A DNA stretch of 64,000 nt from a virus. Location: IMG/VR virus record IMGVR_UViG_3300036715_001865, positions 1 to 64,000 of that record. One strand, given 5' to 3'. The notes beneath the pieces were generated by a model. It saw only the letters and a list, made by a program, of their open reading frames with translations, had not been told where the DNA came from and did not search any database. Shown one piece after another: positions 4,376-46,139 of the stretch. The stretch's first letter is position 1. Every line of letters starts with the position of its first letter. A program made the position numbers and the translations under genes.

Positions 4376-4380
4376 GTGTA

Positions 4381-4839
4381 TTATAAAGAGTCCTTGTGTA
4401 TATCGTTAATTTTGGCTGCTGTGATATCCCGTAACGCAAAACCTCTACGGTTAAACGCATCTAGTACACTTTTGTATTTCTCAGCAAGTTCTTGTACTTC
4501 AAGTGATAGTACATGCATATCGACAAAATCATCTTCCCTATCAATATACTTATCCACAACTCGCTCTCCCAATTGTCTACTATAATTTTCAGTATATTTG
4601 ACAAACAAAGACCCTCTAATCCGTTTGGTTTGCATGTCAATATACTTTATGATAATACCAAGCTCGGCAGCTCGTTCCCCATAATATGCAGCCCATGTCG
4701 CCTGTTCTTTAAGTGCCTGCTCCAATGTTTTACCGGATATCGACAATTTTTCCGCAAAATCACTTAAATCATCTTCGTATTGTGTGATTAATTGTGGGAG
4801 TTTGCTGAAATTATTACCTAATTTATCAATTATACTCAT
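4381..4839 (-). CDS. uvsY: UvsY-like recombination mediator
   Basis: 152-aa all-helical protein with the YTENYSRQL...VDKYID.E and F.RRGF.L..I pattern; located between uvsW and uvsX. Confidence 0.75.
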   Translation of the reverse strand: MSIIDKLGNNFSKLPQLITQYEDDLSDFAEKLSISGKTLEQALKEQATWAAYYGERAAELGIIIKYIDMQTKRIRGSLFVKYTENYSRQLGERVVDKYIDREDDFVDMHVLSLEVQELAEKYKSVLDAFNRRGFALRDITAAKINDIHKDSL

Positions 4840-19851: not shown

Positions 19852-22713
19852 TTAATTGACAACTTCTGATGTAATTACAGTAGCAACCCATCTAATAGTT
19901 TTTGATAATTCACCCGTTACTGTAACTTGTAATGCTCCATTGGTGGTATCTACCGTTACAGCAGCATCCCAAGCCACATTTGTTTCCCCTATGATTACTT
20001 TTGATACTGAACCAATTGTTGTTAATGATGCAGCTGGACCATCTTTTCTTATTGCACCCTCAAAACTATATGCAGCACCACCACCAGTAGCATCGGTTCT
20101 GCGAGCACATACCAAAATTTTAAATGTCCACACAGAATTATCAGTCACCAACAAACGCTGTGTGGCTGCAACACCGTCCATATATAATACAGTTGGGGTA
20201 TTGTTAGTAGTGATATTTCTCAAAATATACATACCAGATTGAGCATCTCCAATAGCAGTAAACTGTCCATTAGCATATGTCTTACTTCCCCACACTCTTG
20301 CATTAGACCCCTCACCAGTTGCTACAGTGTTATCAGCGGTTGCATTAGAGCCACTACCAATAGCAGCTGAATTAACACCTGCGGGATTTGGCACTGTGAC
20401 AGTAGCGGTATTCTCTTTATACAACCGCAAAAATGTTAAGTCTGCTTGTACCAATGCTCTAAATGTTGGTTGACCCGTGCTTCCATTAGGTGCAGCTAAC
20501 ACTTTACCAGTTGTTTGTGTTTGAAGGGTTAGTGTTAGTGTTCCTGTTGTAGTGACAGGTGAATTAGTCACGTTAAATATTGGAGATGTAGAAGCATCTG
20601 TCAATCCAACACTGGTTACTGTACCAACATTACCTGTTGTGTACACCGAATCCCAGGATGCAGCTGTTGTACCGGAATTTACCACACAAACCACATAAGC
20701 AGATGAATTTGGAGCAATAGTTTGGACTGTGTCCCCACCTGACGATTGAACCGTAAGCACTCCAGTACTTCTATTGATAATGGTATATGAATGTCCAGGA
20801 GTAAGTGCTGCAGTCAAAGGAAGCACCACAGTTTCAGATAGCGTTCCAGTATATTCTCGTATAGAAGGACTTTCCACAAATAAAGGTGAAGTGCCACCGG
20901 TTGTAGGAGACGAACTTAAATTACATACAAAATTGTTAGCAAATGCATTCCCATTTAAATTTCTCTGCATCAACGTATTAATGGTTGGAGTTATTGCAAC
21001 ACCAGTACCTGAAGATATACCATTTATAACTGGAGTAGTTAATGATGGTGAAGTCATAACTTGTACCCCAGTAAAGGTTTGTCCAGCATCTGTTCTCGCT
21101 ATTGATGCATTTGCAGATGGAAAAGTCATAGTAGTACCATCTGTACCACTTAATGCAATTGAATTATTAACCGTGAGAGTTTTCCCTGCACCAAGGGTCA
21201 ATGTGCCAGTTCCAGTGGTGATGGTATTCCCATTTACACTTGTTGGAGTAATAGCTCCTAATACTAACGTAATAGCTGGTGTAGATGTTGAAGTTGCAAC
21301 AGTTCCTGATACACCATTGGCAGTTGTAATGGAAACGTCAGATACAGTTCCTATATCTGCCCAAGCTATGTTGGAACTCCATCTTAACTTATTAGTAGTG
21401 GTATCATACCTTACTTTTCCTCCACCCGCAGCTGGTTCTGTGCCTGTGATGCCCGATACTACAGTCATAGCTCCAACACCAGGCAAAACCACATCACTTG
21501 CAATAGATGCAATAATAGAATTTGGAGAATTTGAAATAGTTATTTGATTAGTTGACCCACTTACGGTTTTATACTCAACTGAACCAGCTGCATTATTCAT
21601 CCCCATTAATTGGTTAGCTGTTCCATATGTTGACAACCCTGATATAGTGAAATTACTTCCACCTGTTACCAACAGTGGTAAAGATGCTGTGTATGTTCCT
21701 GCACCTGAGAACTGTGTAAATGTTATATCATCAGTACCAAATTGAATATCATCATTTGTGCCTGTTCCTATTGCTGTTTCCACCCAACCAGATTTAAGTA
21801 AAGTAGTACCTTCAGATACAAAAACAAATGAACCCGCTCTTGCCTCCCCTGGAATGCTATTATCATAATCCCCTGCTCTGGTTAATACCCAAGAGGTTGA
21901 AATTGAACCGACATTAGTAACAATATATATACCATTTTGTTTCGGGTCAACTTGGTTCTTAATTAATACCCTTGCACCAACAGGGGCGGAATAAGAGTCA
22001 ATAGAAAATACAGATAGTGTGCCATTATTCGTTAATGTTGCCCCTACCCCAGCAGTTCCGTTGTTGTATAACGCAACATAGGCAACAATTGATGCTGACT
22101 CTACGGCTGTATGTATTAATAGTCCTGAGGCACTAGCATCCACATAGGCTTTTGATGCAGCATCGGTGCTATTAACTGGTTGTGTTGGCAACCCTGTGAT
22201 TGTTCCACCACCTGACATAGTGATTGTACCTCCACTAACCATAGATCCACCTGATAATGGTAAATATATACTACCTAAACTAGGTATATCAGTAGATACT
22301 AATGCTCTAAAGGACGGTTGACCAGTACTTCCATTAGGAGCAGCAAATACTTGATTAGCTAATTGAGTGTTTAGTGTCATGGTTAATGACCCTGAACTAA
22401 CTATAGGTGAATTAGTAATGGTGTATATAGGTAACACTGAACTATCCAACAACCCAACACTAGTTACTGTCCCACCAGTAGATAAATCGGCCCAGACAGA
22501 ATTATTACTCCATCTAAGTTTATTTGTATCAGAGTCATATCTAATTTGTCCAATTCCTACGATTGGCTGCTGTGCTGTTGTACCTACTGGTATTTTTAAG
22601 GCACCTGTCCCAATTATAGTAAGGGAATTTGAAGCACTTCCCAACAGTGGGGCAATTGTAGTATCTAGGGTAGACAGGGTGTCTATAATGCCCAAATCGT
22701 GGTCATAATTCAT
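19852..22713 (-). CDS. Long tail-fibre-like protein
   Basis: DA..K.YVD fibre motif, RVLIK.Q..P.QNGIY domain, internal duplications; C-terminus shared with the next gene. Confidence 0.7.
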   Translation of the reverse strand: MNYDHDLGIIDTLSTLDTTIAPLLGSASNSLTIIGTGALKIPVGTTAQQPIVGIGQIRYDSDTNKLRWSNNSVWADLSTGGTVTSVGLLDSSVLPIYTITNSPIVSSGSLTMTLNTQLANQVFAAPNGSTGQPSFRALVSTDIPSLGSIYLPLSGGSMVSGGTITMSGGGTITGLPTQPVNSTDAASKAYVDASASGLLIHTAVESASIVAYVALYNNGTAGVGATLTNNGTLSVFSIDSYSAPVGARVLIKNQVDPKQNGIYIVTNVGSISTSWVLTRAGDYDNSIPGEARAGSFVFVSEGTTLLKSGWVETAIGTGTNDDIQFGTDDITFTQFSGAGTYTASLPLLVTGGSNFTISGLSTYGTANQLMGMNNAAGSVEYKTVSGSTNQITISNSPNSIIASIASDVVLPGVGAMTVVSGITGTEPAAGGGKVRYDTTTNKLRWSSNIAWADIGTVSDVSITTANGVSGTVATSTSTPAITLVLGAITPTSVNGNTITTGTGTLTLGAGKTLTVNNSIALSGTDGTTMTFPSANASIARTDAGQTFTGVQVMTSPSLTTPVINGISSGTGVAITPTINTLMQRNLNGNAFANNFVCNLSSSPTTGGTSPLFVESPSIREYTGTLSETVVLPLTAALTPGHSYTIINRSTGVLTVQSSGGDTVQTIAPNSSAYVVCVVNSGTTAASWDSVYTTGNVGTVTSVGLTDASTSPIFNVTNSPVTTTGTLTLTLQTQTTGKVLAAPNGSTGQPTFRALVQADLTFLRLYKENTATVTVPNPAGVNSAAIGSGSNATADNTVATGEGSNARVWGSKTYANGQFTAIGDAQSGMYILRNITTNNTPTVLYMDGVAATQRLLVTDNSVWTFKILVCARRTDATGGGAAYSFEGAIRKDGPAASLTTIGSVSKVIIGETNVAWDAAVTVDTTNGALQVTVTGELSKTIRWVATVITSEVVN

Positions 22714-28196: not shown

Positions 28197-28646
28197 CTAT
28201 TTACTATCGATCACTGGAGCCATAAACGCTCTTAGTAGTTCATTTCGGTCAGCTAACACACTGTCACCCATAATTAGAGTATTGTTTATAGTTCCAGTAT
28301 TTTTATTAGGAGTAAGTTTGTCTTTGTGTTCTTTCATCATTCTACGCTCTCTGGTTGCACCCAATGCAACACTTAACATTGTTGCAGTCACTTCGCCCAC
28401 CCGAGCTTTATATTTTCCTTCGACCATATCCATAGTATCTGCAATGTTTAACACTTGTCCCATGGCGGTATTGTAAATCTCTTCTAGGTTGCCTTCTATC
28501 TCATTATCTTTTTCATCATAATCAATGGCTGGAGTTAATTCAACCGGAACAACTTCTCTATATTCAGCGACTGTAGTACCAACTTCAATTCCAAATACAT
28601 CCTCCAATGGATGAGCAATTGTTTTTTCTTTTGCTATAATGTTCAT
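28197..28646 (-). CDS. Probable terminase small subunit
   Basis: Helical 149-aa ORF directly upstream of the large terminase; ends with the NNTLI...DRNELL motif. Confidence 0.6.
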   Translation of the reverse strand: MNIIAKEKTIAHPLEDVFGIEVGTTVAEYREVVPVELTPAIDYDEKDNEIEGNLEEIYNTAMGQVLNIADTMDMVEGKYKARVGEVTATMLSVALGATRERRMMKEHKDKLTPNKNTGTINNTLIMGDSVLADRNELLRAFMAPVIDSK

Positions 28647-28690
28647 AATATTTACCCTGTTTAGTATAACCGTATTTATACCTATAATTT

Positions 28691-29131
28691 TTAACGAAAA
28701 ATGTCACCTTCAGATATTACCCGAAATGTCATATGATGTTGCTTACACCAAGCTGTTGCTGCTTCCCACTTAGCTTGATTAACAGCATATGTTAGATTTT
28801 CATACAATTTTGTCTTCGGATTCTTTGATTTCGATATTTTTGTTTGGGCTAAAGGCTTAACTTCAATCAACTCTCGTAATACCTCCCCATCCTTATTAAC
28901 ATATTCAATCCAATAATCCGGATAATAATGATGTATCTTTCTATCTGTGGGTTTGATATATGGAATTTTTATTTCTTCACTTGCCCACCGCAAAATTCTG
29001 GGATTAGTATCAAAAAAAGTATGTGTTGACAACTCCCAACTGGACATATACCGAATCTTAGTTACATCACCAATATACTTATCTGGGTGTTTAGGGGTAT
29101 AATAGCCCTGTACAAATCTACTTTTAGCCAT
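28691..29131 (-). CDS. gp4: Head completion nuclease (T4 gp4/gp50, TnsA-like)
   Basis: QG.YTPKHP.KYIGD...YMSSWE...WASEE..IPY......YYPDY...EVKP..QT. Confidence 0.85.
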   Translation of the reverse strand: MAKSRFVQGYYTPKHPDKYIGDVTKIRYMSSWELSTHTFFDTNPRILRWASEEIKIPYIKPTDRKIHHYYPDYWIEYVNKDGEVLRELIEVKPLAQTKISKSKNPKTKLYENLTYAVNQAKWEAATAWCKQHHMTFRVISEGDIFR

Positions 29132-29133
29132 AA

Positions 29134-30537
29134 TTAAAATAAACCCGATGTGAAGCTACTAATTGTTCCACTTATACCTTCAATTCCATTCATTAGTCCG
29201 CCTTTACTGCTTGTATTTTGAGGAGACATTGGATTACAAGACTCTTGACCTGTAGTAGGTGTACCATATGGATTAATTCCTTTTGAATTTGGACCTTGAG
29301 TTGAAGATGCATCATCATTATAACGCAATTGGTACACAGCATCACTTTGTGCTCCTCTGAATAGGTCATCTAAATCTTTCATGGACTTAGTTTCAACATA
29401 TACAGAATCATATACAAAGGTTATACCTAATTCACTCCCTTCATTACTAATTGACATATCCACATCGTCAGGCATTAATTGTGTAATTTTAGGATTCAAA
29501 AAATGGTATACATTGACCATTAATCCATAGTCATACACATGATATAATATTATTTCCTTGAAAACACCCTGTTTATTGTCATTATTTAATGGTCCGATGG
29601 ATGCAGCATACTTGTTTGATGTAGCCTGATCACCACCAGATTTAGATAATGTATTATCCTTAAAACTCATACCTAACTGCTCAAATGAATCTTGTGTTGA
29701 TGCTGTTTCTGGTGACATATTTGAAATAGGAGTCATTGCCTTCAAATAAGCTGTATAAAAGGCTGTGGTATTGTTTAATATATCATCATGAAATGTCATA
29801 CTCATTTCTTCAAATTCAGACTTAATAATCACTTTGGTTCTAAAATTATAGAAATTAACATTTTCTGTTTGGTAAGTGATTTTAGGACGAGACGACTTTT
29901 TTACAACAAATGCCATCCCCCTCATAATACTATCCAATTCACTATAACCTGCAGCAGTAATAAATTGTACCATGAATAAAAATTTATACTTAGGCGCTCT
30001 AGCAATCATATCAACAGCATATGGAGATGCTTCACATCTTGGGGTAAGAGCATTCAGCCTATCATCTCCTGGAGTGTAAATACCTCTGGCCAATCTTTCT
30101 AAGTCTTGAAAATCCTGAAGATAATAAGGGATATCAGTAATTTTAAAATGACCTTGTTGAACCTGTTGAAATACTTGCTTAGCCTGTCCCCAAGCTCTAT
30201 TAGCTACATCTGGATTGAAATCTTGTAATGTTTGTATCACTGTTGGTGAAATACCTAAGTGATCCAATATCCAATTAGCTCCTTGGTCAACACTATCTCC
30301 AATTGTTGATGGTAGTGCTCCACACCCAGTTCTAATAGAGTTTGATACACTTGCTATTGTTCGCAACCCTGTTCCTATTGCTCCAGCACCAACACTGTTT
30401 AAAACCTCCAAATCACCAATTTTTCCAATTGAATTAATGGTATTTCTACGGTCAGATACAGCTGAACCAATATCAGCACTACTCTTGGCAGCGAATGCGG
30501 CAGGACACGGCTTTACGCTAAAATTTCTTGGATCCAT
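29134..30537 (-). CDS. Tail-tube-initiator / baseplate protein (gp48/gp54-like); probable start MDPRN at 30537
   Basis: C-terminal gp19-like fold signature (P.KFLF.V.F...V....RP.I...MTFHDD...P.IT...D...ITF.YD); downstream of the tube gene; late promoter at 30561-30568. Confidence 0.6.
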   Translation of the reverse strand: MDPRNFSVKPCPAAFAAKSSADIGSAVSDRRNTINSIGKIGDLEVLNSVGAGAIGTGLRTIASVSNSIRTGCGALPSTIGDSVDQGANWILDHLGISPTVIQTLQDFNPDVANRAWGQAKQVFQQVQQGHFKITDIPYYLQDFQDLERLARGIYTPGDDRLNALTPRCEASPYAVDMIARAPKYKFLFMVQFITAAGYSELDSIMRGMAFVVKKSSRPKITYQTENVNFYNFRTKVIIKSEFEEMSMTFHDDILNNTTAFYTAYLKAMTPISNMSPETASTQDSFEQLGMSFKDNTLSKSGGDQATSNKYAASIGPLNNDNKQGVFKEIILYHVYDYGLMVNVYHFLNPKITQLMPDDVDMSISNEGSELGITFVYDSVYVETKSMKDLDDLFRGAQSDAVYQLRYNDDASSTQGPNSKGINPYGTPTTGQESCNPMSPQNTSSKGGLMNGIEGISGTISSFTSGLF

Positions 30538-30594
30538 ATTAATTCCTTGTTTCATTTAGGTATTTATATAAAGTACTATTCGCAAATTTCACAC

Positions 30595-30627
30595 AAAAAA
30601 ATACCCCGACCAGCGGGGTATTTTTTT
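30595..30627. terminator. Intrinsic terminator
   Basis: AAAAAAATACCCCG-ACCAG-CGGGGTATTTTTTT. Confidence 0.8.
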
Positions 30628-30656
30628 TGCAAAAGTAAACGTATATTTAATTGTTG

Positions 30657-32213
30657 TTATACAACAGAGCTATTGTTGATAGTATATTTTCGTTTCCCAC
30701 AATCCCATATACGCAATATTCCGTTATTATTACAGTTAACGGTTTCAGATAATGTTGGGTCAAAGTGTTTCAATAACTTTTGTAAGTTTTTGCGTCTATA
30801 GTTAAATTTATGAAACCTATTATAACCATCCGGACTATAATAATAGTCTGGTGGTAAAATACTATCTAATACAAATCCAGTTTTTTCATATAACTGTCCA
30901 TTACTCCACCGGTTATCAGCAAAACTAATAATTTGTGTCCAATTGTGTGATTGTTTAAAGTGTGTTAATATTTTTGAAAACCCTCCCACCACAGTACAAG
31001 ATGTAGCATACCTATTCAAACAAAAAATATTATTTGGTTGTTTAATAAAGGCCATAGCAGCTACTAATGTGCCACCACACTCCAACCCATATGTTATGCT
31101 TCCAGGGCCATCCCCTTGGATATGATGCTCCTCAAAAAATTGTTTTTTTTGATGCTTATCTAATTGGACAACAGTTGTTTTCCGGGCAAACAATTTATGG
31201 ATATGTGCGAAACCCAGTAAATGCATCAATTTGTTGACAACTTGACGTTTTCGCTGTTTCCACTCGTCTTCATAAATAGTTAATAATTGAATACCTTGTT
31301 GTTGACACATATCATGCTTGTGTTTATGATAATGTCTATCTTTTCCTTTTTGTTCACTGTGCCAATATAACCCACAATATTCAATTGCTAAGTTAAACTG
31401 TGGAATATAGATATCCAATTCTAATGGTGATATGATAGTTCTGGTATTAACAACATGCTCAATGTCACAATCTATTAACAGTTGGGACAGTTGCTTGTGC
31501 CCTCCTGACATTCCATAATATTTTGTTTCAATACCATACTTTCTCATATAATTACAAACTGTGGGAACTCCTCCAGTCAACTTCAACTCTTCAGCTATCA
31601 GAGTCAACGATTTCTTATTAGTTAAATGTTGGTCCGTTAGCCAATCAATATTCTGTAATTTTGTTAATGATATTGGATCAATCCATCTATGGGATATATT
31701 TTGAACACCATATTTCAACTGCCAAGTACTAATTCTTTTATTGGTTCGTTGAGTGATATCATTTTGAGTGTACGGATGTAGTAATCTATATTGTTGGGTG
31801 GAGTGTTTTCCTTGGGCGGAAGCTAGGTAATTAGTATGTCCAAATTTATTCAGGTTGGTAATTTTTCTTGCCTGTGTTCCTTTTTTTGTTGCAGCAATCA
31901 ACATCTGAGGGGACTGTTTCCACAACATCCCTGACTGTACCTTAATAGGATCTTTTGATGCACACTGGACACAACAATATTTATTATATTGTTTTTTATC
32001 AGTCTTCCATTTTACCAGAATTGAACAAGATGGGGCAGAACAAATTGGTAAATTATCACCATGTATTATATGCCATAACCTTTGTTGCAATGAACTGTTT
32101 GTTGGTAAAAAATTAGTCTGTTCGATAACCTGTTGCTTAATATGAGCATTGGTTTTTTTTAGATTTAATTCATTCCCATGTTGTTGCCATATTATTGCCT
32201 CTTCCTTTGTCAC
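30657..32213 (-). CDS. Free-standing endonuclease E2: KYG repeats + HTH + Vsr-like nuclease + GNAT/Mom-like domain
   Basis: LELDIYIPQFNLAIEYCGLYWH nuclease motif; HHIQG...LNRYAT...GGFSK...IISFADNRWSNGQLYEKTGF; RIWDCG end. Confidence 0.85.
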   Translation of the reverse strand: MTKEEAIIWQQHGNELNLKKTNAHIKQQVIEQTNFLPTNSSLQQRLWHIIHGDNLPICSAPSCSILVKWKTDKKQYNKYCCVQCASKDPIKVQSGMLWKQSPQMLIAATKKGTQARKITNLNKFGHTNYLASAQGKHSTQQYRLLHPYTQNDITQRTNKRISTWQLKYGVQNISHRWIDPISLTKLQNIDWLTDQHLTNKKSLTLIAEELKLTGGVPTVCNYMRKYGIETKYYGMSGGHKQLSQLLIDCDIEHVVNTRTIISPLELDIYIPQFNLAIEYCGLYWHSEQKGKDRHYHKHKHDMCQQQGIQLLTIYEDEWKQRKRQVVNKLMHLLGFAHIHKLFARKTTVVQLDKHQKKQFFEEHHIQGDGPGSITYGLECGGTLVAAMAFIKQPNNIFCLNRYATSCTVVGGFSKILTHFKQSHNWTQIISFADNRWSNGQLYEKTGFVLDSILPPDYYYSPDGYNRFHKFNYRRKNLQKLLKHFDPTLSETVNCNNNGILRIWDCGKRKYTINNSSVV

Positions 32214-32214
32214 A

Positions 32215-32268
32215 AAAATAACTCCTAATTAAAGGAGTTATTTTAACACAAATACAACATATAATCAA
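32215..32268 (-). promoter_or_regulatory. Promoter TTGATT-17-(TG)TAAAAT overlapping an RBS-sequestering hairpin (E2 leader)
   Basis: -35 at 32263-32268, -10 at 32240-32245; 12-bp stem 32215-32226/32233-32244 with AGGAG in the arm next to the GTG start. Confidence 0.75.
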
Positions 32269-32282
32269 CAGATTATATTTTA

Positions 32283-32424
32283 CCTGCCCCCAAGCTCTAT
32301 TTGCCACATCTGGATTAAAATCCTGTAATGTTTGTATCACTGTGGGTGATATACCTAAATGGTCTAATATCCAATTTGCTCCTTGGTCCACGCTATCTCC
32401 AATAGATGAAGGTAATGCCCCACA
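32283..32424 (-). pseudogene. Synonymously diverged 47-codon copy of part of the gp48/54-like gene (30183..30324)
   Basis: Ungapped alignment at offset 2100 with 18 mismatches in 142 nt but only one amino-acid change (T>S); no start or RBS of its own. Confidence 0.9.
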
Positions 32425-33539
32425 AAATCTGATTCCCACATAACAACCAGATTATAACCTAGTGATTTTATTAGGTTTTCTCTTTCGATAGTTTTTTGGT
32501 ATAGCTCGCCCATTGATTTTCCATTCACTTCATTAATTTCATTTGGTGGATAAATTATTGGATTTCCGTGCCAATAATCACCATGAAACTCATAGATTGT
32601 ATTTGTTTCTTCACAGTACCCATCAGCTCTATATCTAGTAGATGGTATTTTCCACTCAGATATTATCTCATAATCTTGTTGAGTTAGCCAGAGTTGGCAC
32701 TTATATGAACTCCAAAAATATTGTCTAATTTCAATTTCGTAATGTCGTAAGTGTGAAAGTATAGTTCCATATGTAATAACATCTAATTCACTGGCAATTT
32801 GAGTAGCAGTTTTGTTTTGTGTAATGTATTGATCAAATAACCAATTATAATCCTCTATTAATGGGAGAATATCCACCATATGTTGTTGACTAGCATGTTT
32901 AACACCATATTTCAATATATTATTATTTGCCCTTTTATTTTTAATTTCTTGTGTTTGTGATGCTCTTATTACCCCATATTTTTTCATATGAGTGGAGGTT
33001 ATAGCATCCTGTACTTGCTTTGTTTGTACTGGAAATACTGTACCATACTTTATCATACAAGTATTATTTCTTTTTTGTCTAACAATAGGGCTTTGTGATG
33101 AATGATGTACACCATATTTCTTTAGATTAGTAGCTACTGTGTTTACTTTCCCACTAGCTGATTGGGCAGCATATTCTACACCATACCTCTCTATCATTGT
33201 TTGTTTTTGTTTTTGTTGTATCAGATCAGAAGACATAGGATTTTTTGTCCCATATCTAATTAAATTGGTAGCAGCTGCTTTGTCTTTTAATTGTGCTGAT
33301 TGCATTGGATTTTCAACACCATACCTCTTTACCATTGTTTGTTTTTGTTTTGCTTGTTGAGATAACTTATCTTGCTTTGCACAACTAGCACTACAATATG
33401 TATTAAATTGTCCCCCAGTAGCCACATTTCTCCATTTTACCTCAGTAGGACACATTTTACACAACACAGGATATGTCTTATGGTGTTTATCTAACCAACC
33501 TTGTTGAATATCAGATATCTTTTTCATAGTCCCAACCAA
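32364..33539 (-). CDS. Free-standing endonuclease E1: many KYGV repeats + HTH + Vsr-like nuclease, no GNAT domain
   Basis: RADGYCEETNTIYEFHGDYWHGNP...GYNLVVMWESDF; the C-terminus runs out of frame into the gp48/54 fragment. Confidence 0.8.
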   Translation of the reverse strand: MVGTMKKISDIQQGWLDKHHKTYPVLCKMCPTEVKWRNVATGGQFNTYCSASCAKQDKLSQQAKQKQTMVKRYGVENPMQSAQLKDKAAATNLIRYGTKNPMSSDLIQQKQKQTMIERYGVEYAAQSASGKVNTVATNLKKYGVHHSSQSPIVRQKRNNTCMIKYGTVFPVQTKQVQDAITSTHMKKYGVIRASQTQEIKNKRANNNILKYGVKHASQQHMVDILPLIEDYNWLFDQYITQNKTATQIASELDVITYGTILSHLRHYEIEIRQYFWSSYKCQLWLTQQDYEIISEWKIPSTRYRADGYCEETNTIYEFHGDYWHGNPIIYPPNEINEVNGKSMGELYQKTIERENLIKSLGYNLVVMWESDFVGHYLHLLEIAWTKEQIGY

Positions 33540-33562
33540 CTGCTAATTTGTGTACCCTAGAC

Positions 33563-33618
33563 ATAATAAACTCCTATTGAAAGGAGTTTATTATAAACCA
33601 CATAAGTAAAATAATCAA
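33563..33618 (-). promoter_or_regulatory. Promoter TTGATT-17-TATAAT overlapping an RBS-sequestering hairpin (E1 leader)
   Basis: -35 at 33613-33618, -10 at 33590-33595; 13-bp stem 33563-33575/33582-33594. Confidence 0.75.
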
Positions 33619-33622
33619 CTGA

Positions 33623-34210
33623 TTAAATTTTACCTGCACCCCCTGTAGCAATCCCCGGACCCTGTGAATATCCTCCAAGTACTTGTCTTGCATGGTCAAA
33701 ACTGATTACAACAGCTAGTTCAACTGGATCACCTGTTTCATATGCCAACTCTGCATAATCAATACTTTCAATCCAACAACCTTCAATTGTCCATTTTTCA
33801 ATCACTTGATCATTACCATCTAACATATCTAAGTAACTAACAAACTTATATAATGAACCTTCCCCAGCAGCCGCGAGCCATTGACCTTCAGCCCCAATTA
33901 ACCACTGTTGTTTTTGTTCCTGTGCTTGTAATACTCGAGATGCAGTTCCAGTAACATCATCTTGAATCGTAAGGTTCATTGGTTCCCACGAATGTTTACC
34001 AGCAATATATGAAATTGAGTTATAACGATGCAATGTTATTTTCTCATGTTTTAATTGTGGTCTACTAACCTTTGTTGTTTGCATAGATATTGGCTGACTA
34101 TCTGTTCCACCACCCATGTTCGCAAAGGTGATTCTCCATCTATTTTTGTGTTTTGGGTGTAGGATACCTGTTCCAACACCTGGAATCCCTATATCATTAA
34201 TTGTTGACAT
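33623..34210 (-). CDS. gp19: Tail tube protein
   Basis: LHPK.KNRWRI.F...RP.L...Y.AGK..WEP..LTI.DD...W.IEGCW...ISFD; late promoter at 34238-34245. Confidence 0.85.
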   Translation of the reverse strand: MSTINDIGIPGVGTGILHPKHKNRWRITFANMGGGTDSQPISMQTTKVSRPQLKHEKITLHRYNSISYIAGKHSWEPMNLTIQDDVTGTASRVLQAQEQKQQWLIGAEGQWLAAAGEGSLYKFVSYLDMLDGNDQVIEKWTIEGCWIESIDYAELAYETGDPVELAVVISFDHARQVLGGYSQGPGIATGGAGKI

Positions 34211-34271
34211 GAATTATATCTCCTAATTTGTTTATTATATTTATACAAACGAGGGTATTATAATACAAAAA

Positions 34272-35738
34272 TCACATTAACACATATTTAATCTTGCCAC
34301 AGTCCCATATCCGCAAAACTCCATTTAAGTCACAATTAACTTTTTCACTCAACTGCTCGTCATATTTTTTTAATAATTTTGATAGGTACTTTCGACGATA
34401 GTTAAATTTGTGTACCCGATTGTGTCCATCTGGGGAATAATAATAATCAGGAGGTAGAGTACTTACAGAAATAAACCCAGTGGCTTGGTATAACTCTCCT
34501 GAACTCCACCTCAAATCCGCAAATGTTACGATCTGGGACGGAGCATAATTGGTTTTGAAATATGATAATAACTTAGTAAACCCACCTACAATCAATGAAG
34601 ATGTGGCATATCTATTTAACACAAATGCTCCACCCTGTTGTTGTATAAACGACATACAAGATACCAACTCATTGTCATATGTTAGTCCTATATTAATGGA
34701 ACTAGGACCGTCCCCTTGTATGTGGTGGGCAGTAAGAAAGGATTGCTTAACATCTGGAGATACTGTTTGGATAATACACTTTCTGCCATATAACCGAGGT
34801 CGATTATCACAGTTTAATAAAATATTTAATTTTTCTTTTATTATAGGTTGTTTTTGTTTCCACTCATCTTCGTATATTGTCAACAATCTAATACCCAACT
34901 GTTCACACATTTTGTGTTTGGTGCTGTGATAATGTTTATGTTTACCTTGTTGTTCACTGTGCCAATACAACCCACAATACTCAATTGCTAAATTATACTC
35001 TGGTATGAATATATCAAGCTCATATGGAGGTATGATAGTACGAACATTGACATCAAACGAAATAGACAATCCACGTAAATAATCACCTATTTGTTTTTCG
35101 CCAGTAGATACGAAAAAATGCTTTGTATCATATCCTAGTTTATGCAAGTTTCGTTGAACTGTATTAACATCAACTTCTAGCTCTGTAGCGATATCACTCA
35201 ATGTTCTTTTATTGACATGGTGTTGTTCTTGTAACCACGTAGGGTCTATTAATTTGGAATAACTGGTAGGTATTATGTGTTTTTGATTTTTGTGTATTCT
35301 ACCATACCGTTGGATATTTGTGCTTTGTTGTTTATTTTTAACTTCAACAGTTTGTTGTGGAATAGTAGTACCATACCGTTGGACATTTGTATTATTGCGC
35401 TTGATGATCCGATTAGGATTATCAATCCCACATTTATACGAACAGGTATCAGAATACCCAACATTTTTTCCTGTTGTATTAAACTTAACTAGACTATGAC
35501 ACACTACACACAGTTTTGGGGAGATTATATGGTTTTTAATACAATGAACCCTCTCCCTAAGAGACGATTTTAAATCATCTGTTATGAAGTCGGTGCGGGT
35601 CATTATATATGAAGTTGCAACAGGGTTTAATTTCAACACCCCAAATGATTTTTTTGATAATTTATAATCACTATCTAGTATACCACAATCTACTAGGTGG
35701 GTCAGAATTTCACTATCAGTTTTAAATTCATCAGACAC
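34272..35738 (-). CDS. Free-standing endonuclease E4: KYG repeats + HTH + Vsr-like + GNAT/Mom-like
   Basis: ELDIFIPEYNLAIEYCGLYWH; IVTFADLRWSSGELYQATGF; RIWDCG. Confidence 0.85.
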   Translation of the reverse strand: MSDEFKTDSEILTHLVDCGILDSDYKLSKKSFGVLKLNPVATSYIMTRTDFITDDLKSSLRERVHCIKNHIISPKLCVVCHSLVKFNTTGKNVGYSDTCSYKCGIDNPNRIIKRNNTNVQRYGTTIPQQTVEVKNKQQSTNIQRYGRIHKNQKHIIPTSYSKLIDPTWLQEQHHVNKRTLSDIATELEVDVNTVQRNLHKLGYDTKHFFVSTGEKQIGDYLRGLSISFDVNVRTIIPPYELDIFIPEYNLAIEYCGLYWHSEQQGKHKHYHSTKHKMCEQLGIRLLTIYEDEWKQKQPIIKEKLNILLNCDNRPRLYGRKCIIQTVSPDVKQSFLTAHHIQGDGPSSINIGLTYDNELVSCMSFIQQQGGAFVLNRYATSSLIVGGFTKLLSYFKTNYAPSQIVTFADLRWSSGELYQATGFISVSTLPPDYYYSPDGHNRVHKFNYRRKYLSKLLKKYDEQLSEKVNCDLNGVLRIWDCGKIKYVLM

Positions 35739-35799
35739 AAAAAACTCCTATTTTTATTAATATTATATAGGAGTTTTTTGTTTTTTACAACATTACTTA
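35725..35799. repeat. 75-bp direct repeat, copy 1 (E4 leader); copy 2 at 37318..37392
   Basis: 74/75 identical. Contains TTGTAA-17-TATAAT (35785-90 / 35762-67), a 13-bp stem hairpin (35739-51 / 35767-79) and codons for MSDE. Confidence 0.95.
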
Positions 35800-37331
35800 G
35801 TCAATACCCATCTCTGTAGACCACAATTATATATTTGGTGTATGTTGTTATTGTGGGTATTGGTTACTTCACTTAGGTTGGGGTCATAAGTTTTTAATAG
35901 ATTAGGTAAGTTCTTGTGTCTATAATTAAATTTATGAACCCGACACTCGCCTATAACATATTGGTAATCAGGAGGAGTAATTTTATCTAACACAAACCCA
36001 TTTGTACCATATATTGTTCCAACACTCCATCTCAGATCAGCAAAACTTATAATAGTAGCCCACTCATTATTATTTTTAAAATGCGACAATAATTTACTAA
36101 ACCCACCTCGCACCTGTCCAATGGTAGCATACCTATTCAATACAAAGTTGCCTTCACCTTTATTAATAAAGGTCATCATCGCTACAAAATTGCCACCATA
36201 GGTAAGTCCATATGTTGTGGACCCTGGACCATCTCCTTGTATATGATAGGAATCAAAAAATTCTGATTTTGTTTTCTTGTTTGGTACTGTGATTACACAC
36301 GACCGCCCATTAATTTTTACACCTTCACTATATCCAAGTATAGTTCTGATGGTATTTTTAACCAGGTGTGAATTATTCAACCACTCATCCGAGAATATAG
36401 TGATTAATCTAATTCCAATATCTGCACACCTATTATATTTCATTTGGTGATAATTGGATGTTTTGTATTCAGAGGAGTGCCAATATAATCCACAATATTC
36501 TATGGCTATGTTTTTATCAGGGATGTAAATATCTAGTTCATATGGTTTAATTAATGACCTATTTTTAACTTCAAAAATTACACCAATTTCTGTTAGAAAC
36601 CGTTCAATATCAACTTGTTGCTGTGAAGATGATTGGTGCCAATACTGTACTTCTATTCCATGTTTTATTAATCTACTAGAGACTACTTTATGGGAGTTTT
36701 TCCAATGTAATCCCAATTCAACACACATAGATGCAACTGTCCGTTGATTAGTTATGTGTTGTTCATACAACCAATCAACGCTATTGAGTTTATTAATGGC
36801 TTCCTCAGATAAAACAGATAATAGCTTGACTGTGCTGGACGGTATCCACCCATTATCAATCTTTCGTCCTATGGTTATTTTTCTAATTTGTTTACTATGT
36901 TCACTATATTGTCTATGTTGAGACAGTGCAGTTAATTGAATTTTTTGACGAGTATCAGTTGATGTTGTGTTGCCGTTGTTCCAATGGGTAATTTGTCCAG
37001 TTGAGAATCGTTCTTTTCTGGTATTGGACAATTGAATGTTTTGTTCAACTGTTCTTGGGATGCCTTTGTTCCAAGCTTGGGTAGGATTATCTAATTTTGT
37101 TTGTTTTATCTTTTCAACCACCTCTAATGATCTTGGTACTCCTTTTCTACTTGAATTTGATCTAATGGCTGCTTCTCGTTTTCTATTGGTTGCATTTGTG
37201 GACTTTAAAACAGCAGTGGGATACAACAGTTTATACTCTGGTAACGTGGTGCTATGTTTTGAAAGATGTTTCCATGTAATGGTAGACATTTCTGCACCAC
37301 ATATCAAACATTTAATTAATTCATCAGACAC
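35793..37331 (-). CDS. Free-standing endonuclease E3: C2H2-like finger + NUMOD3-like motifs + HTH + Vsr-like + GNAT/Mom-like
   Basis: CLICG...WKHLSKH; WNKGIPRT; ELDIYIPDKNIAIEYCGLYWH; IISFADLRWSVGTIYGTNGF. Confidence 0.85.
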   Translation of the reverse strand: MSDELIKCLICGAEMSTITWKHLSKHSTTLPEYKLLYPTAVLKSTNATNRKREAAIRSNSSRKGVPRSLEVVEKIKQTKLDNPTQAWNKGIPRTVEQNIQLSNTRKERFSTGQITHWNNGNTTSTDTRQKIQLTALSQHRQYSEHSKQIRKITIGRKIDNGWIPSSTVKLLSVLSEEAINKLNSVDWLYEQHITNQRTVASMCVELGLHWKNSHKVVSSRLIKHGIEVQYWHQSSSQQQVDIERFLTEIGVIFEVKNRSLIKPYELDIYIPDKNIAIEYCGLYWHSSEYKTSNYHQMKYNRCADIGIRLITIFSDEWLNNSHLVKNTIRTILGYSEGVKINGRSCVITVPNKKTKSEFFDSYHIQGDGPGSTTYGLTYGGNFVAMMTFINKGEGNFVLNRYATIGQVRGGFSKLLSHFKNNNEWATIISFADLRWSVGTIYGTNGFVLDKITPPDYQYVIGECRVHKFNYRHKNLPNLLKTYDPNLSEVTNTHNNNIHQIYNCGLQRWVLTK

Positions 37332-37392
37332 AAAAAACTCCTATTTTTATTAATATTATATAGGAGTTTTTTGTTTTTTACAACACTACTTA
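37318..37392. repeat. 75-bp direct repeat, copy 2 (E3 leader, after the sheath stop)
   Basis: Partner of 35725..35799 with the same promoter, hairpin and U-tract. Confidence 0.95.
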
Positions 37393-37394
37393 AG

Positions 37395-39128
37395 TTATGC
37401 TGTCAAGGACGCACCGGTTGCAACAATTCGGATTGGAATATATATAAATTCCGCGGCCCTTACAGGTTTCAATGCGACATCGAGATACATTTCATTTCTA
37501 TCAATGCGATCAGGTGTATTATTAGAGGAATCACAGACTGTAGCGAAATCATATAGACCACGTTTAACAATCAAATCACCCAAAAATGAATCAACAGCAG
37601 CTTTTAGGTTATCTCTGGTTAGTTGATCATTTGGTTCAAACACAAACGGCATTGTGTTTTTGCGTAATGAACGTTTGATATATTGAACCAAACGTACCAC
37701 ATTGATACGATCCATTGCTGAAGCATCCGGAGCAGAAGTTTTTTGTCCCCATACAATAATACCTCTTCCTGGGAAGAACACAATAGGATTAATATTGGTA
37801 AAGTATTTGTATAAGTTATCTCTTTGTCCTAAATTCAAAGCAACTGGGTTGAATGTAGTTGGTGTTCCTAGAGTACCAGATACATATCCAACTTCAGATA
37901 TACTTGATACTTGTCCACGTCTAGTTCCAGCTGGTGCAAACCACATTTCTGACACTTCATCACTGTATATGATTGTGCGTAATGCAGTACCAGATGCTGA
38001 AACGAATACATTTGCTCCATCTAAATTTGATGCTAATCCGTGTGGATAATAATATGCCACATTTCGGTTAGATCTTCGTTCAACAGTAGCAGCCCAAGTT
38101 ACAACATCTTCTGGAGTTTTGGTAAATGGAGTATCAGCAATAACAAATGCTTCTTCTTGTATATCAATTACCAAATTGATTAATTCATCCACAACTTCAG
38201 GGAAACCAGGACATACAACAATGTTATATTCGTATGCTTCTGATCTTATATCAGTGTTGCTGTTAATAGATGCTTGTAAGGCTGTAACAACAGCAACTCT
38301 ACGTGCAGCATCATTTGAACCAAGGCTAGTTTCGTTGGCAAATTGATTAGTATACTTAAATTCATCAGCACCACCCAATAAAGCGTTACCAGCTTCTTGT
38401 GGAGTCCATTCAGTAGTTACAATTCCACCTAAGTTATTGTTAACCCAGTCAGTTGCAATTCCAGCTAATCCAAGAAATACACCAGTTGCAGCATTAGTAC
38501 AACCATTAGCATACACTAAATATGGAGAGGACGCATGGTCATCCATGAAACTAATACGACTGTGTGCAAATGAGAACATGCTCCAAATAGGTTGTGTTGC
38601 TGCTGCTGCAAGTGATAAGAATTTGGTACGATTGATAGTGGTTTTGTAAGTTGGGTCTGATGGAACATATCCATTTGATAAATTAAATTCATTCAAATAT
38701 GCATTTGCTAAATTTTCCAGAACATACGAAGCTTCTTGGATTTTAGTATCCCACATCATTTGAATATCAGCAACATTATCGTTCAAGTTTACATTTGCAC
38801 GAATAACATATGCTCTGCTACAAATACCTAAACACTGATTCAATGCAAACAAACCGTATTCATTTCGGGTATCCCCATGTAGTGGTCTACCACTAGTATC
38901 TGTTAAGAATTTAGGAATACCATACAATTCAGTACTTTGTCTTAAACTGGTAAGAGTTCGGATCACATTAGATTCATATGTGCCTGCCGCCCCAGATATA
39001 CCATCTGGTTTAGTTTTTTCATCAGCTGTTGCTATGAAAATTAATGGGACAGTTTTAGCTGATGCTGGAATGAAAAAGGATTCATCTGTCACAGTAACTG
39101 ATACCCCTGGGCTAATTAAATTTGCCAT
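37395..39128 (-). CDS. gp18: Tail sheath protein
   Basis: LISPGVSVTVTDES; WFAPAG.RRG; INPI.FFPGRG..VWGQKT...SAMDRINV.RL; FVFEPND; NNTPDRIDRNE..LDVALKP.RAAEFI. Confidence 0.95.
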   Translation of the reverse strand: MANLISPGVSVTVTDESFFIPASAKTVPLIFIATADEKTKPDGISGAAGTYESNVIRTLTSLRQSTELYGIPKFLTDTSGRPLHGDTRNEYGLFALNQCLGICSRAYVIRANVNLNDNVADIQMMWDTKIQEASYVLENLANAYLNEFNLSNGYVPSDPTYKTTINRTKFLSLAAAATQPIWSMFSFAHSRISFMDDHASSPYLVYANGCTNAATGVFLGLAGIATDWVNNNLGGIVTTEWTPQEAGNALLGGADEFKYTNQFANETSLGSNDAARRVAVVTALQASINSNTDIRSEAYEYNIVVCPGFPEVVDELINLVIDIQEEAFVIADTPFTKTPEDVVTWAATVERRSNRNVAYYYPHGLASNLDGANVFVSASGTALRTIIYSDEVSEMWFAPAGTRRGQVSSISEVGYVSGTLGTPTTFNPVALNLGQRDNLYKYFTNINPIVFFPGRGIIVWGQKTSAPDASAMDRINVVRLVQYIKRSLRKNTMPFVFEPNDQLTRDNLKAAVDSFLGDLIVKRGLYDFATVCDSSNNTPDRIDRNEMYLDVALKPVRAAEFIYIPIRIVATGASLTA

Positions 39129-43661: not shown

Positions 43662-46139
43662 TTATGGATTTACATTAGTATCATCTTGTAAATATTTCCA
43701 AACAGTGCCATTGAAGTACGTATACGCAAGAGTTTTTGGTAAAACTGCTGGAGTGGTTGGAACATGTGGTTTAGTACCAACATACAACACTTTAAAATGT
43801 GTGAATATAGGTGTACCACTTGGAGTTTTTTGTAAATGTGCAGCATCAATCAAATCTACAATACCTGAAACTGGTGCTGTAAATCCACGAGCATGAACAG
43901 CTTTAAATAAAGTACCATCTAATACCACCACCTTTGATGCTAATCCAGTAGTTGCTGATGTGATTTTAATATTACCACCAGTTATAGTTGCAGTAGCAGC
44001 AGCCCCCAAGTCAGTATTAATTTCAGATAACAATGTGGTAAATGTTTGTGCTGCACTTCCTTGAATACTAATTGGTTTAGATACTCCATCCACGATAACA
44101 TTAGCTGTATATAATGTTGGAGCTGTACTAGCTGTATAACTAATTCCAACATACCCTGTTAAACTACTAAACAATGCACCTACATCATGTATTAATACAG
44201 ATGAAGCTAAACCAGTAGTAGCAGATGTGATAACAATATCCCCCCCTGTTAGTGCAGCAGTTGCATATGTTACAGCTGCTTTTCCAGGTACTGCATGAGA
44301 TATTGATACCAACCCTGACACAGCTTTAAATAAAGTTACATCAGCAATAGATACCAACGACAATGCGCCTGTTGTTGCAGACGTGATTCGTAGATGACCA
44401 GCATTGATCGATGCCACAGCTGCTGCTCCCAAATCAGTATTAATTTCTGCTAACAAAGTTGTAACAGTTTGTGCTGCACTTCCCAACACTGAAATAGATT
44501 TGGCAACTCCGTCAACTGTAATAGTTGCAGTATATGTTGTAGTTCCAACTAAGCCTGTTGCAGCAGATCCAGACAAAAAGTTAATGTACTGTACATCTTG
44601 ATACCCAGCTGTTGCTGTAGAATTTAAATCAGTGTTGATTTCATCAATAACATGTTGGATAGTATCCCCCATAGCTCCAGTGAAGTTAATAGTTCTAATA
44701 TTACCATCAACATACACCGTTGAAGAATATGTACGCGATGAACTACCACCTGGATTTGTTGGTAACAAAAATGCGAAACTTGGTAAAGCAGCAAATAATG
44801 TACCATCAGTTATTACAACTGTTGAGTGTACTCCATATGTTGCAGATGTGATTCTAATATCTCCACCTGAAATAGAAGCAACCGCTGCTGCGCCTAAATC
44901 TGTATTAATTTCATTGATAACATCACCAAATGTTGCAATGGCTGCTGGCAAGATAGAAATTGATTTGGACACCCCATCAACTACTACTGTGGCTGTTAGT
45001 GCTGCCAACGAACCAGTACCAGCTACAGCAGTTGCAATAGTACTAAAACTTGTTAAAGCAGGGAATAATGTTCCAGCTGTAATTGCCACAGAAGAAGTGG
45101 TGCTTGTTGTTGCTGAAGTGATTTTGATGTTACCACCCGAAATAGAAGCAACCGCTGCTGCACCTAAATCTGTATTAATTTCAGCTAACAATGTGGTAAA
45201 TGTTAAGGCTGCTGAACCCAATATAGAAATTGCTTTTGACACACCATCAACTACTACTGTGGCAGTATAGGTAGGATATACAATATCTGTTCCACCCGCT
45301 GATACATTTCCGTTTGTGGAAGTCCATGCAGTATTAATTGCACCAATTAAGTCGGTTCCACTTCCAGCTGGGACAGTAACTACTACAGATGATGTTGCCC
45401 CAGTAGTGGACGAAGTGATAATCCATGCATTACCGATTGCAGCAACTGTTGCACCAGGAATTTGAGCATCTAACAGAACTGCCATAGAGGTCATGGTATC
45501 AATTCCAGTAGCAGATACGGTATATACCGTAGCAGTACCACCATCAACAGCAACCTTAATAGTATAACTAGCAGCGGCAATACCAAGAACAGTTGTTGGA
45601 GTAATTGCTGGGGTATCAGTAAACGCAATCGTTGCACTACCACTGGTTGCTGGAGTAAATAATCCAGTTGCATCACCACCAGCTTTTGCTACAGAAAAAT
45701 TAGCAAATTGATAACCAGCTGTAGGTACCAATGTTGTAGATGTCCCTGCAACAATTGGATTATTATAATTAACAATCTGGTATCCTTTGGTTCCAGCTGA
45801 TGCTGATAACCCTGATGGGTCTGTTGTTAATTTTGCGGCACCCAAATCAACTGTTGCTTTTCCAGCAGTTGCTGTAGCAACATTGCTGAGTCCTGTCGTT
45901 GACCCACCTGATTTAGATCCACCAAAATCGATAATTTGGCTACCTGCTGTTGGACCAGCTAACGGTAAAGCACCGCCATTATTTGTGATAAATTGTGTTA
46001 GAATACTTTTATCATCTTCTGATAACGTATCCCATAAAATAAGAGATCTGACACCGGCATCGGTTTTAAGAACGGCAGCATTATTCAATGTTCCGTTGAA
46101 ATGTACATTTTCGGATGTAATCCACACTGGGTTTGGCAT
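43662..46139 (-). CDS. Large Ala/Thr/Gly-rich structural protein with ~6 repeated ~75-aa beta/alpha modules
   Basis: Recurrent YTATV.VDGVSK.ISI.G....T...L..EINTDLGAAA.A.I.GG.I.ITSAT.G; own late promoter and terminator. Confidence 0.75.
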   Translation of the reverse strand: MPNPVWITSENVHFNGTLNNAAVLKTDAGVRSLILWDTLSEDDKSILTQFITNNGGALPLAGPTAGSQIIDFGGSKSGGSTTGLSNVATATAGKATVDLGAAKLTTDPSGLSASAGTKGYQIVNYNNPIVAGTSTTLVPTAGYQFANFSVAKAGGDATGLFTPATSGSATIAFTDTPAITPTTVLGIAAASYTIKVAVDGGTATVYTVSATGIDTMTSMAVLLDAQIPGATVAAIGNAWIITSSTTGATSSVVVTVPAGSGTDLIGAINTAWTSTNGNVSAGGTDIVYPTYTATVVVDGVSKAISILGSAALTFTTLLAEINTDLGAAAVASISGGNIKITSATTSTTSSVAITAGTLFPALTSFSTIATAVAGTGSLAALTATVVVDGVSKSISILPAAIATFGDVINEINTDLGAAAVASISGGDIRITSATYGVHSTVVITDGTLFAALPSFAFLLPTNPGGSSSRTYSSTVYVDGNIRTINFTGAMGDTIQHVIDEINTDLNSTATAGYQDVQYINFLSGSAATGLVGTTTYTATITVDGVAKSISVLGSAAQTVTTLLAEINTDLGAAAVASINAGHLRITSATTGALSLVSIADVTLFKAVSGLVSISHAVPGKAAVTYATAALTGGDIVITSATTGLASSVLIHDVGALFSSLTGYVGISYTASTAPTLYTANVIVDGVSKPISIQGSAAQTFTTLLSEINTDLGAAATATITGGNIKITSATTGLASKVVVLDGTLFKAVHARGFTAPVSGIVDLIDAAHLQKTPSGTPIFTHFKVLYVGTKPHVPTTPAVLPKTLAYTYFNGTVWKYLQDDTNVNP

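Follow-up and report, generated by a model that had tools for sequence, protein, structure and literature searches.

A fragment of a tail gene between two nuclease genes of a jumbo phage, probably a scar of recombination between two variants

Introduction

The spread and piling-up of free-standing homing endonuclease genes are usually inferred from the presence and absence of genes in related genomes. The locus described here raises a more concrete question, namely how an internal piece of one tail gene, joined to the last codons of another, came to lie between two such nuclease genes. The DNA analyzed (the window) is a stretch of 64,000 nucleotides from the start of a 190-kb IMG/VR virus record (IMGVR_UViG_3300036715_001865). 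The record is judged to be about half complete, and with ~190 kb representing about half of its genome the virus is a jumbo phage. An earlier note, made from the letters of the window alone, had described the piece as a fragment of a baseplate gene from another phage allele, spliced by microhomology onto a tube-gene end. We analyzed both junctions of the fragment, its divergence from the resident gene and the corresponding loci of related phages, and weighed the explanations that could account for them.

Results

Gene order at the locus

All genes of the tail cluster discussed here are on the minus strand. In coding order they are E4 (37331-35793), E3 (35738-34272), the tail tube gene (34210-33623), E2 (33527-32364), the fragment (32424-32283), a second copy of the tube end with its adjoining module (32291-32212), E1 (32213-30657), a spacer and the gene for a 473-aa protein (30555-29134), followed by the head-closure, small terminase and large terminase genes. 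The tube gene (33623..34210) encodes 195 amino acids ending in GGAGKI-stop, matches the tail tube family PHROG 4542 (E 9e-42) and shares 73-89% amino acid identity with the tube genes of seven relatives. E2 (32364..33527) is predicted to be a free-standing homing endonuclease gene of the DUF7487 type, with 387 amino acids counted from ATG 33527 and a score of 102.7 bits against Pfam DUF7487 (cutoff 27). E1 (30657..32213; 518 aa) is a putative Hef-like free-standing homing endonuclease gene of full length, residues 11-514 aligning with positions 27-535 of the 536 positions of PHROG 3339 (E 2.2e-106). A group I intron or intein carrying the nuclease was considered and rejected, as no Rfam match at E 0.1 or better was found in 28500-38000 and the nuclease genes lie between genes.

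The spacer behind E1 (30556..30656, minus strand) contains a G+C-rich hairpin (30621-30601) and a T4-type late promoter box, TATAAATA (30568-30561). Nuclease-free relatives have a spacer of this layout between the tube gene and the 473 homologue. Just 6 nt separate the box from the first ATG of the 473-aa ORF, and the homologues start with MDPRN. The true start is probably ATG 30537, which would give a protein of 467 aa; codon numbers in this paper follow the 473-aa ORF.

The 473-aa gene itself (29134..30555, minus strand) is intact. The C-terminal half of its product has a tube/Hcp fold, as indicated by the match of residues 186-399 to PHROG 4542 and by Foldseek matches to tube, baseplate and cap chains of phages and injection systems. 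The segment that is duplicated in the fragment belongs to an N-terminal helical domain in the AlphaFold model, of which only the fold class is used here (mean pLDDT 53). A profile of the 473 family gave no match against PDB sequences. The label baseplate gene, which had been given as gp48/54, was guessed from position and is not a result. It remains a reasonable guess, but the evidence points to a tube/Hcp fold and does not distinguish an initiator from a cap role.

Comparison of the window with itself also revealed other diverged direct repeats of 70-89% identity, at 11176-11708, at 43897-45272 and between 20449-20632 and 22297-22480.

The fragment diverged while it was still coding

The fragment (32283..32424, minus strand) derives from a diverged allele of the tube-fold gene, of which it covers codons 78-124. 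It aligns with the resident copy of this segment (30183..30324, minus strand) over 142 nt without gaps and with 18 mismatches (124/142 identical; blastn E 3.7e-44), and these two copies are the only ones in the whole 190-kb record. On either side of the fragment the homology to the 473-aa gene ends abruptly. Read on the minus strand in the frame of ORF 29134-30555, the two sets of 47 codons differ by a single amino acid change (S84T), confirming the match described in the earlier note. A Nei-Gojobori count gave 17 synonymous differences and 1 nonsynonymous difference (pS 0.54, pN 0.009, dN/dS ~0.01). When 18 substitutions were placed at random on the resident sequence, with the transition share as observed, a mean of 13.3 amino acid changes resulted, and one change or fewer occurred in 0 of 200,000 trials. 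These numbers support divergence of the fragment under purifying selection followed by a recent join, as opposed to decay in place.

The same numbers bear on a duplication within one genome, after which the copy decayed in place or the resident gene drifted. Direct repeats 2.1 kb apart could come from a local duplication, but about 13 of the 18 differences would then be expected to change an amino acid, against the one observed, and the flank of the fragment is a tube end and not its own neighbours. This explanation is effectively refuted by the simulation, and we consider it extremely improbable.

The tube end is repeated together with a promoter-hairpin module

The flank of the fragment belongs to a second repeat. 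Positions 32261-32291 match 33611-33641 at 28 of 31 positions and encode the end of the tube gene, GAGKI-stop. The place of this repeat and its 28/31 match had been described correctly, but its length of 31 nt is too short: with one gap it extends over 32212-32291 versus 33561-33641 (77.8% identity over 81 nt, E 6e-10) and thus measures about 80 nt. The repeated module comprises the stop codon, a promoter-like pair (TTGATT-17-TAAAAT/TATAAT), a 12-14-bp hairpin whose 3' arm is the Shine-Dalgarno sequence (SD; z-scores -5.3 and -4.1), and a start codon. Copy a (33561..33641, minus strand; hairpin arms 33592-33582 and 33575-33565) runs from the 3' end of the tube gene to a start codon and precedes E2. 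Copy b (32212..32291, minus strand; hairpin arms 32242-32233 and 32226-32217) precedes E1, holds the last five tube codons and the stop, and its similarity reaches as far as the E1 start codon. In the hairpin and start region, copy b resembles the spacer module of the nearest relative, L005, more than copy a does. The 18-nt tube remnant in copy b differs from the live tube gene at two synonymous positions only. Synonymous-only differences in both the fragment and the tube remnant indicate that both diverged while coding and were joined recently.

The two homologies overlap at junction J2 (32283..32291), by the 9 nt CCTGCCCCC. This overlap matches each present-day copy, CCTGTCCCC in the 473-aa gene and CCTGCACCC in the tube gene, at 8 of 9 positions, so that the true microhomology was between 4 and 9 nt long; the overlap on which the earlier note had built exists, but a microhomology shared at all 9 nt does not follow from it. 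By our own calculation, the chance of a match of at least 8/9 past a blunt end is about 1e-4. The overlap is as expected of microhomology-mediated joining, which the sequence at J2 supports. A mosaic boundary within the tube gene was also sought; its last 130 nt dip in identity to L005, but they do so relative to all relatives too, and the profile was discarded as uninformative.

Amino acid changes are fewer than in comparable orthologues

The degree of protein conservation in the fragment was compared with that of orthologous genes. Orthologue pairs at pS 0.50-0.57 carry about 7-12 nonsynonymous changes per 47 codons. The pair formed by relatives L012 and L015, at pS 0.50, has 12, and for the tube genes of the window and L005, at pS 0.56, 6.7 changes are expected, with one or none in 1.3% of 47-codon stretches. 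Such stretches with at most one nonsynonymous change make up 4.2% of the terminase gene and are absent from the 473-aa gene. The single amino acid change of the fragment is therefore in the tail of the orthologue distribution, and its purifying signal exceeds the norm of the family. This may be due to chance, to a donor whose protein was similar while its silent sites had diverged, or to ongoing selection on the fragment. That the segment is an unusually conserved nuclease target was rejected, since its mean column identity is 0.64 compared to 0.59 for the whole protein; the closest relatives are ~68% identical within it.

Ongoing selection would mean that the fragment is kept because it is translated, either from GTG 32439 or 32391 or through a -1 slip on the U-run at the E2 junction, or because it mimics a target site of E1 or E2. 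The dN/dS of ~0.01, below that of comparably diverged orthologues, would fit, as would an 89-aa ORF (32439-32170) that spans the fragment and of which a gene caller called 73 aa, and the frame of the fragment, which is -1 relative to E2 at GAU UUU G. Neither GTG is preceded by an SD, though; the segment contains just two and a half of the helices that make up its domain, and the 89-aa ORF continues through the promoter, the hairpin and the E1 start. Among proteins of 48-156 aa in a search of 5.8 billion clusters, the only short ORFs with the segment were those of the window, and no other protein carried it. The tube remnant is equally synonymous-only although it cannot share the reading frame of the fragment, which makes divergence prior to the join more likely. 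We consider maintenance by selection very unlikely. Likewise, nothing pointed to the fragment acting as a decoy or guide (no SD, a partial domain and no relatives with the fragment). Selection against recombination between the repeats was dismissed as a cause of the divergence, because it would not spare amino acid positions in a dead fragment.

A further idea, also unlikely, is that variants of this phage keep the protein sequence of the 473-aa N-terminus while half of the silent sites differ because stacked homing endonucleases repeatedly drive the selection of cleavage-resistant silent variants. If true, such silent recoding would explain why amino acid change is ten-fold rarer than in comparably diverged orthologues. 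In a bolder version, the piece would still be used, as a C-terminal extension of E2 reached by a -1 slip or as a target mimic.

E2 has lost its own end at a second junction

The other border of the fragment is junction J1 (32424..32425), where codon 78 of the fragment follows directly on the end of the conserved E2 domain. This C-terminal YEFHGDYWHGNP...WE domain is intact, with all 47 columns that are invariant in an alignment with 11 homologues retained (47/47), and it ends with ...LVVMWESDF exactly at 32425. Most of the 11 aligned homologues stop 0-10 residues past the WE(S/N)D motif, and the E2-like gene that L015 has at this place ends in WESDFKI-stop. E2 of the window is without its native C-terminus and stop codon. 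The residues that follow WESDF (VGHYLHLLEIAWTKEQIGY) are specified, for the last 19 codons and the stop, by the fragment in a different frame. At J1 the foreign 473 copy lacks its codons 1-77, and the stop of E2 is absent together with any spacer.

As read from the sequence, the fragment is an internal piece between two illegitimate joints, J1 and J2. The earlier model of homologous repair on one side and microhomology on the other agrees with the overlap at J2, but it proposed one illegitimate joint where the scar has two. With the stop lost and the fragment beginning at codon 78 instead of codon 1, a further deletion or a template switch is needed to account for J1.

The 5' side of E2 is unusual as well. 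The ATG of copy a (33564) occupies the position of the E1 GTG in copy b, and it opens just a 17-codon upstream ORF (33511..33564, minus strand) which stops inside E2 codons 5-6. The ATG of E2 that is supported by homology lies 37 nt downstream of the module ATG, in another frame and without a clear SD. The upstream ORF and the 37-nt E2 leader possibly represent a third joint, and E2 may be poorly translated or coupled to the 17-codon ORF.

Both junctions are present on a second contig

Metagenomes of the same habitat hold several related phages, and an assembly chimera of co-occurring E1 and E2 strains could in principle produce such a mixture. A separate 22-kb contig from JGI sample 3300035661, with different ends, is 100% identical to the window over 9,379 nt including both junctions, which argues against an assembly artefact. 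Moreover, an artefact would leave the E2 stop and codons 1-77 in place. Graph assemblers do not join sequences on a 9-nt overlap. A chimera is hardly credible on these grounds.

Related phages carry parts of the arrangement

A search of 5.8 billion clusters identified 257 homologues of the 473-aa protein, the best with 79% amino acid identity. The region between the tube gene and the 473 homologue differs among relatives. In L004, L016 and L010 it consists of a hairpin and a late promoter without a nuclease gene, the tube gene being directly followed by the 473 homologue, which makes E1 an optional gene. An apparent insertion in the 473 homologue of L010 was followed up and set aside, its extra match being the tube paralogue. 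L013 has one DUF7487-type gene (44% to E2), followed after a 28-nt gap by a 470-aa homologue, and L014 one DUF7487-type gene plus two small ORFs. L015 has a DUF7487-type gene (42% to E2), a Hef-like gene (53% amino acid identity to E1 over the full length), a small ORF and then the 473 homologue. The two nuclease genes of L015 are thus in the same order as in the window, separated by a plain 75-nt spacer and with no scar, indicating that stacking does not require a scar of this kind.

The nearest relative, L005 (tube gene 89%, 473 gene 79%), has a 273-nt spacer and no intact nuclease gene at this place. The spacer (4354-4626, between the tube gene and a 469-aa gene) starts with a promoter-hairpin-GTG module in which a stop follows immediately. 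It gives a weak alignment, 60% over 215 nt (E 4e-5), with copy b plus the first 150 nt of E1, and looks like a relic of an E1-type (Hef-like) cassette. Single-element arrangements of the kind that had been predicted are seen in relatives, as the one DUF7487 gene of L013 and the putative E1-type relic of L005, but with 44% and weak similarity, respectively, these are arrangements of the same kind and not the actual parents.

An allele that matches the fragment better than the resident gene was also predicted, and none was found. The corresponding stretches of L004, L005 and L007 are 72-76% identical to the fragment at the nucleotide level, compared to 87% for the resident copy and no better than the resident compared with the same three, and the best full-length relative reaches 79% amino acid identity. 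Two back-translated patterns of the fragment peptide gave no match in viral contigs. A scan for related loci in viral and metagenome contigs revealed no closer allele, the metagenome part adding just distant loci, and distant blastn searches of GenBank phages returned short matches among nuclease genes only. The closest relatives of E2 (P0122 and P0123, ~50% identity) are at unrelated loci and are therefore uninformative on the donor. The earlier note had named the want of a better-matching allele as something that would speak against its model; this reflects sampling and is not a contrary result.

Judging from L013-L016 and a search for DUF7487-type genes, the whole phage group looks heavily colonised by selfish nucleases. 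DUF7487-type genes are abundant in it, with 1,749 matches, at least seven of those listed coming from one 341,607-bp contig. The large terminase of L016 carries a LAGLIDADG/intein signal.

When 120 homologues were screened around codons 78 and 124 for large indels or internal repeats, P0002/L007 was the only case. In L007 (16-1668, on the ENA contig ERZ4230004 with 4.8x coverage), the 473 homologue contains an exact 240-nt in-frame tandem duplication. It comprises 80 residues, WGQAQQ...FMVQFITA, and its left breakpoint, A|WGQ, is within ~12 nt of J2. The proximity may reflect a fragile or cut site, or it may be a coincidence.

A second nuclease stack suggests which genes are newcomers

Two putative Hef-like genes, E4 (35793-37331) and E3 (34272-35738), form a second stack between the sheath and tube genes (34272..37392, minus strand). 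Each is preceded by one copy of a 75-nt direct repeat (37318-37392 versus 35725-35799, 74/75 identical) which starts at a stop codon, that of the sheath gene or of E4, and runs via a hairpin into the first codons, MSDE, of E4 or E3. Between its sheath and tube genes, L005 has an E3-type gene only (70% identity), which points to E4 as the gene that was added upstream. Its arrival looks recent and may have come about as that of E2 did, without a captured fragment. In both stacks the gene that is shared with L005 is the downstream one, preceded by a copy of the end of the upstream structural gene. Comparison with this one relative suggests that E1 and E3 are older residents and that E2 and E4 are newcomers which inserted upstream, next to the stop of the structural gene.

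Discussion

The fragment and the adjoining tube end are probably a recombination scar between the E1 and E2 cassettes of two phage variants. From the repeats, the overlap at J2, the synonymous divergence, the missing native end of E2 and the arrangement of the locus in relatives, a probable course of events can be reconstructed, in which the break, the nuclease that made it, the polarity (E2 as the newcomer) and the order of the two joints are conjectural. Two related jumbo-phage variants would each have carried a different free-standing nuclease cassette just past the tube stop, variant 1 in the order tube, E1 (Hef-like), 473-aa gene and variant 2 in the order tube, E2 (DUF7487 type), 473-aa gene. 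A double-strand break suffered by the E1 variant near its tube stop, in the course of a mixed infection, would have been repaired by homology on one side only. On the other side, copying from the E2 variant would have run through E2 into its 473-aa gene, and the copied end, at codons 122-124, would have been joined at 4-9 nt of microhomology to the broken end of the E1 variant, five codons before the tube stop. In the resulting order of tube, E2, fragment, tube end, E1 and 473-aa gene, both nucleases would be present and each tail gene would keep a single intact copy. J1 would stem from the removal of the E2 stop, the spacer and the foreign codons 1-77, either through a deletion at a later time or because the same repair switched template, and the loss of promoter and start from a truncated copy of a tail protein would plausibly have been favoured. 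Several points stand against this scar model: there is no sampled donor, one event leaves J1 unexplained, amino acid change in the fragment is rarer than the norm, and L015 has the same stacking order without any scar.

The earlier note had placed the cut site of E2 near the J2 codon. This is purely conjectural, and the same scar also fits the opposite polarity, with E1 cutting the 473-aa gene near codon 124. In that case the backbone would have been that of the E2 variant, and the 473-aa gene would have been cleaved near codon 122-124 by the E1 of a co-infecting variant. From the downstream end, copying would have proceeded leftwards via the 473 start, spacer and E1 of the other variant to its tube end, and the copy would have been joined at the microhomology to the unresected upstream break end, so that the distal end of the fragment would be the E1 cut site. 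Joins by microhomology are usually located close to or at the end of a break, which is precisely where the fragment stops. The L007 breakpoint lends slight support, with an estimated chance of ~3% that it falls within ~12 nt in a 1.4-kb gene, although the duplication is on one contig of low coverage (4.8x) and may be coincidental. On the other hand, the upstream break end would have been well matched by the copied strand over 370 nt, making a microhomology join unneeded, and the comparison with L005 makes E1 the older resident. We regard this polarity as unlikely, though less so than the other alternatives considered here, and prefer the scar model with E2 as the newcomer.

The scar is a clean natural example of a known process and not a new system. 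One-sided illegitimate repair of breaks, with microhomology junctions, has been described for intron homing in phage T4 (Parker et al. 1999, summarised in PMC2988022), and repair of this type has been proposed as a route by which mobile nuclease elements reach new contexts (PMC2988022). The proposed event resembles it in the nuclease break, the homology on one side, the microhomology joint on the other side and the extra sequence that is carried in. The T4 work used engineered crosses and an intron-encoded enzyme, whereas here the event is natural and the genes are free-standing, with two nucleases stacked and the scar trimmed by a second deletion.

Free-standing phage endonucleases such as SegF, SegG, MobE and Hef of phage U5 spread by intronless homing (review PMC2988022). 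Similarly, the nuclease genes of the window are located between conserved essential genes, are absent in some relatives and have their own promoter and hairpin. By analogy, they would be expected to cut the neighbouring conserved gene and to drag flanking markers along. Normal intronless homing has homology on both sides and leaves no duplicated fragment, and E2 belongs to the uncharacterised DUF7487 group. In phage T6, SegB-linked segmental amplification proceeds via microhomology and truncates the 3' end of the nuclease (PMC13096335). There, too, the locus of a free-standing nuclease is rearranged via microhomology and the nuclease loses its own 3' end, but the SegB event is a tandem amplification, under defence pressure, of a segment belonging to one and the same genome, whereas here two diverged alleles are joined. 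In ICP1 phages, nuclease genes are found at boundaries of genetic exchange (PMC10448857). In both cases nuclease genes lie where related phages exchange sequence. The ICP1 boundaries come from divergence profiles of many isolates, and the present case is a physical scar in one genome without sampled parents.

A further likeness may exist outside phages. For atp6 of Allomyces macrogynus, in fungal mitochondria, Paquin, Laforest and Lang reportedly described in 1994 a hybrid gene end associated with an endonuclease. As here, a nuclease gene would travel with a foreign-allele piece of the neighbouring gene and leave a duplicated gene piece behind. In Allomyces the foreign piece takes the place of the functional gene end, in frame, and leaves the former end as the fossil, whereas here the resident gene is untouched. 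A hybrid gene end of the Allomyces type was rejected for the window, as the fragment is internal (codons 78-124) and unfused to the tube or 473 frame, and the resident gene is complete.

At this locus the joint itself is preserved with little decay, in the form of a foreign-allele fragment, a microhomology overlap and a nuclease gene without its own stop codon. If the scar arose as proposed, it is a natural counterpart to the illegitimate one-sided repair seen in T4 crosses. It would also provide two candidate cut sites for two uncharacterised enzymes, one in the last codons of the tube gene and the other at codons 122-124 of the tube-fold gene. Its value is that of a well-preserved example of the process, which can also guide the design of cleavage assays for Hef-like and DUF7487 enzymes.
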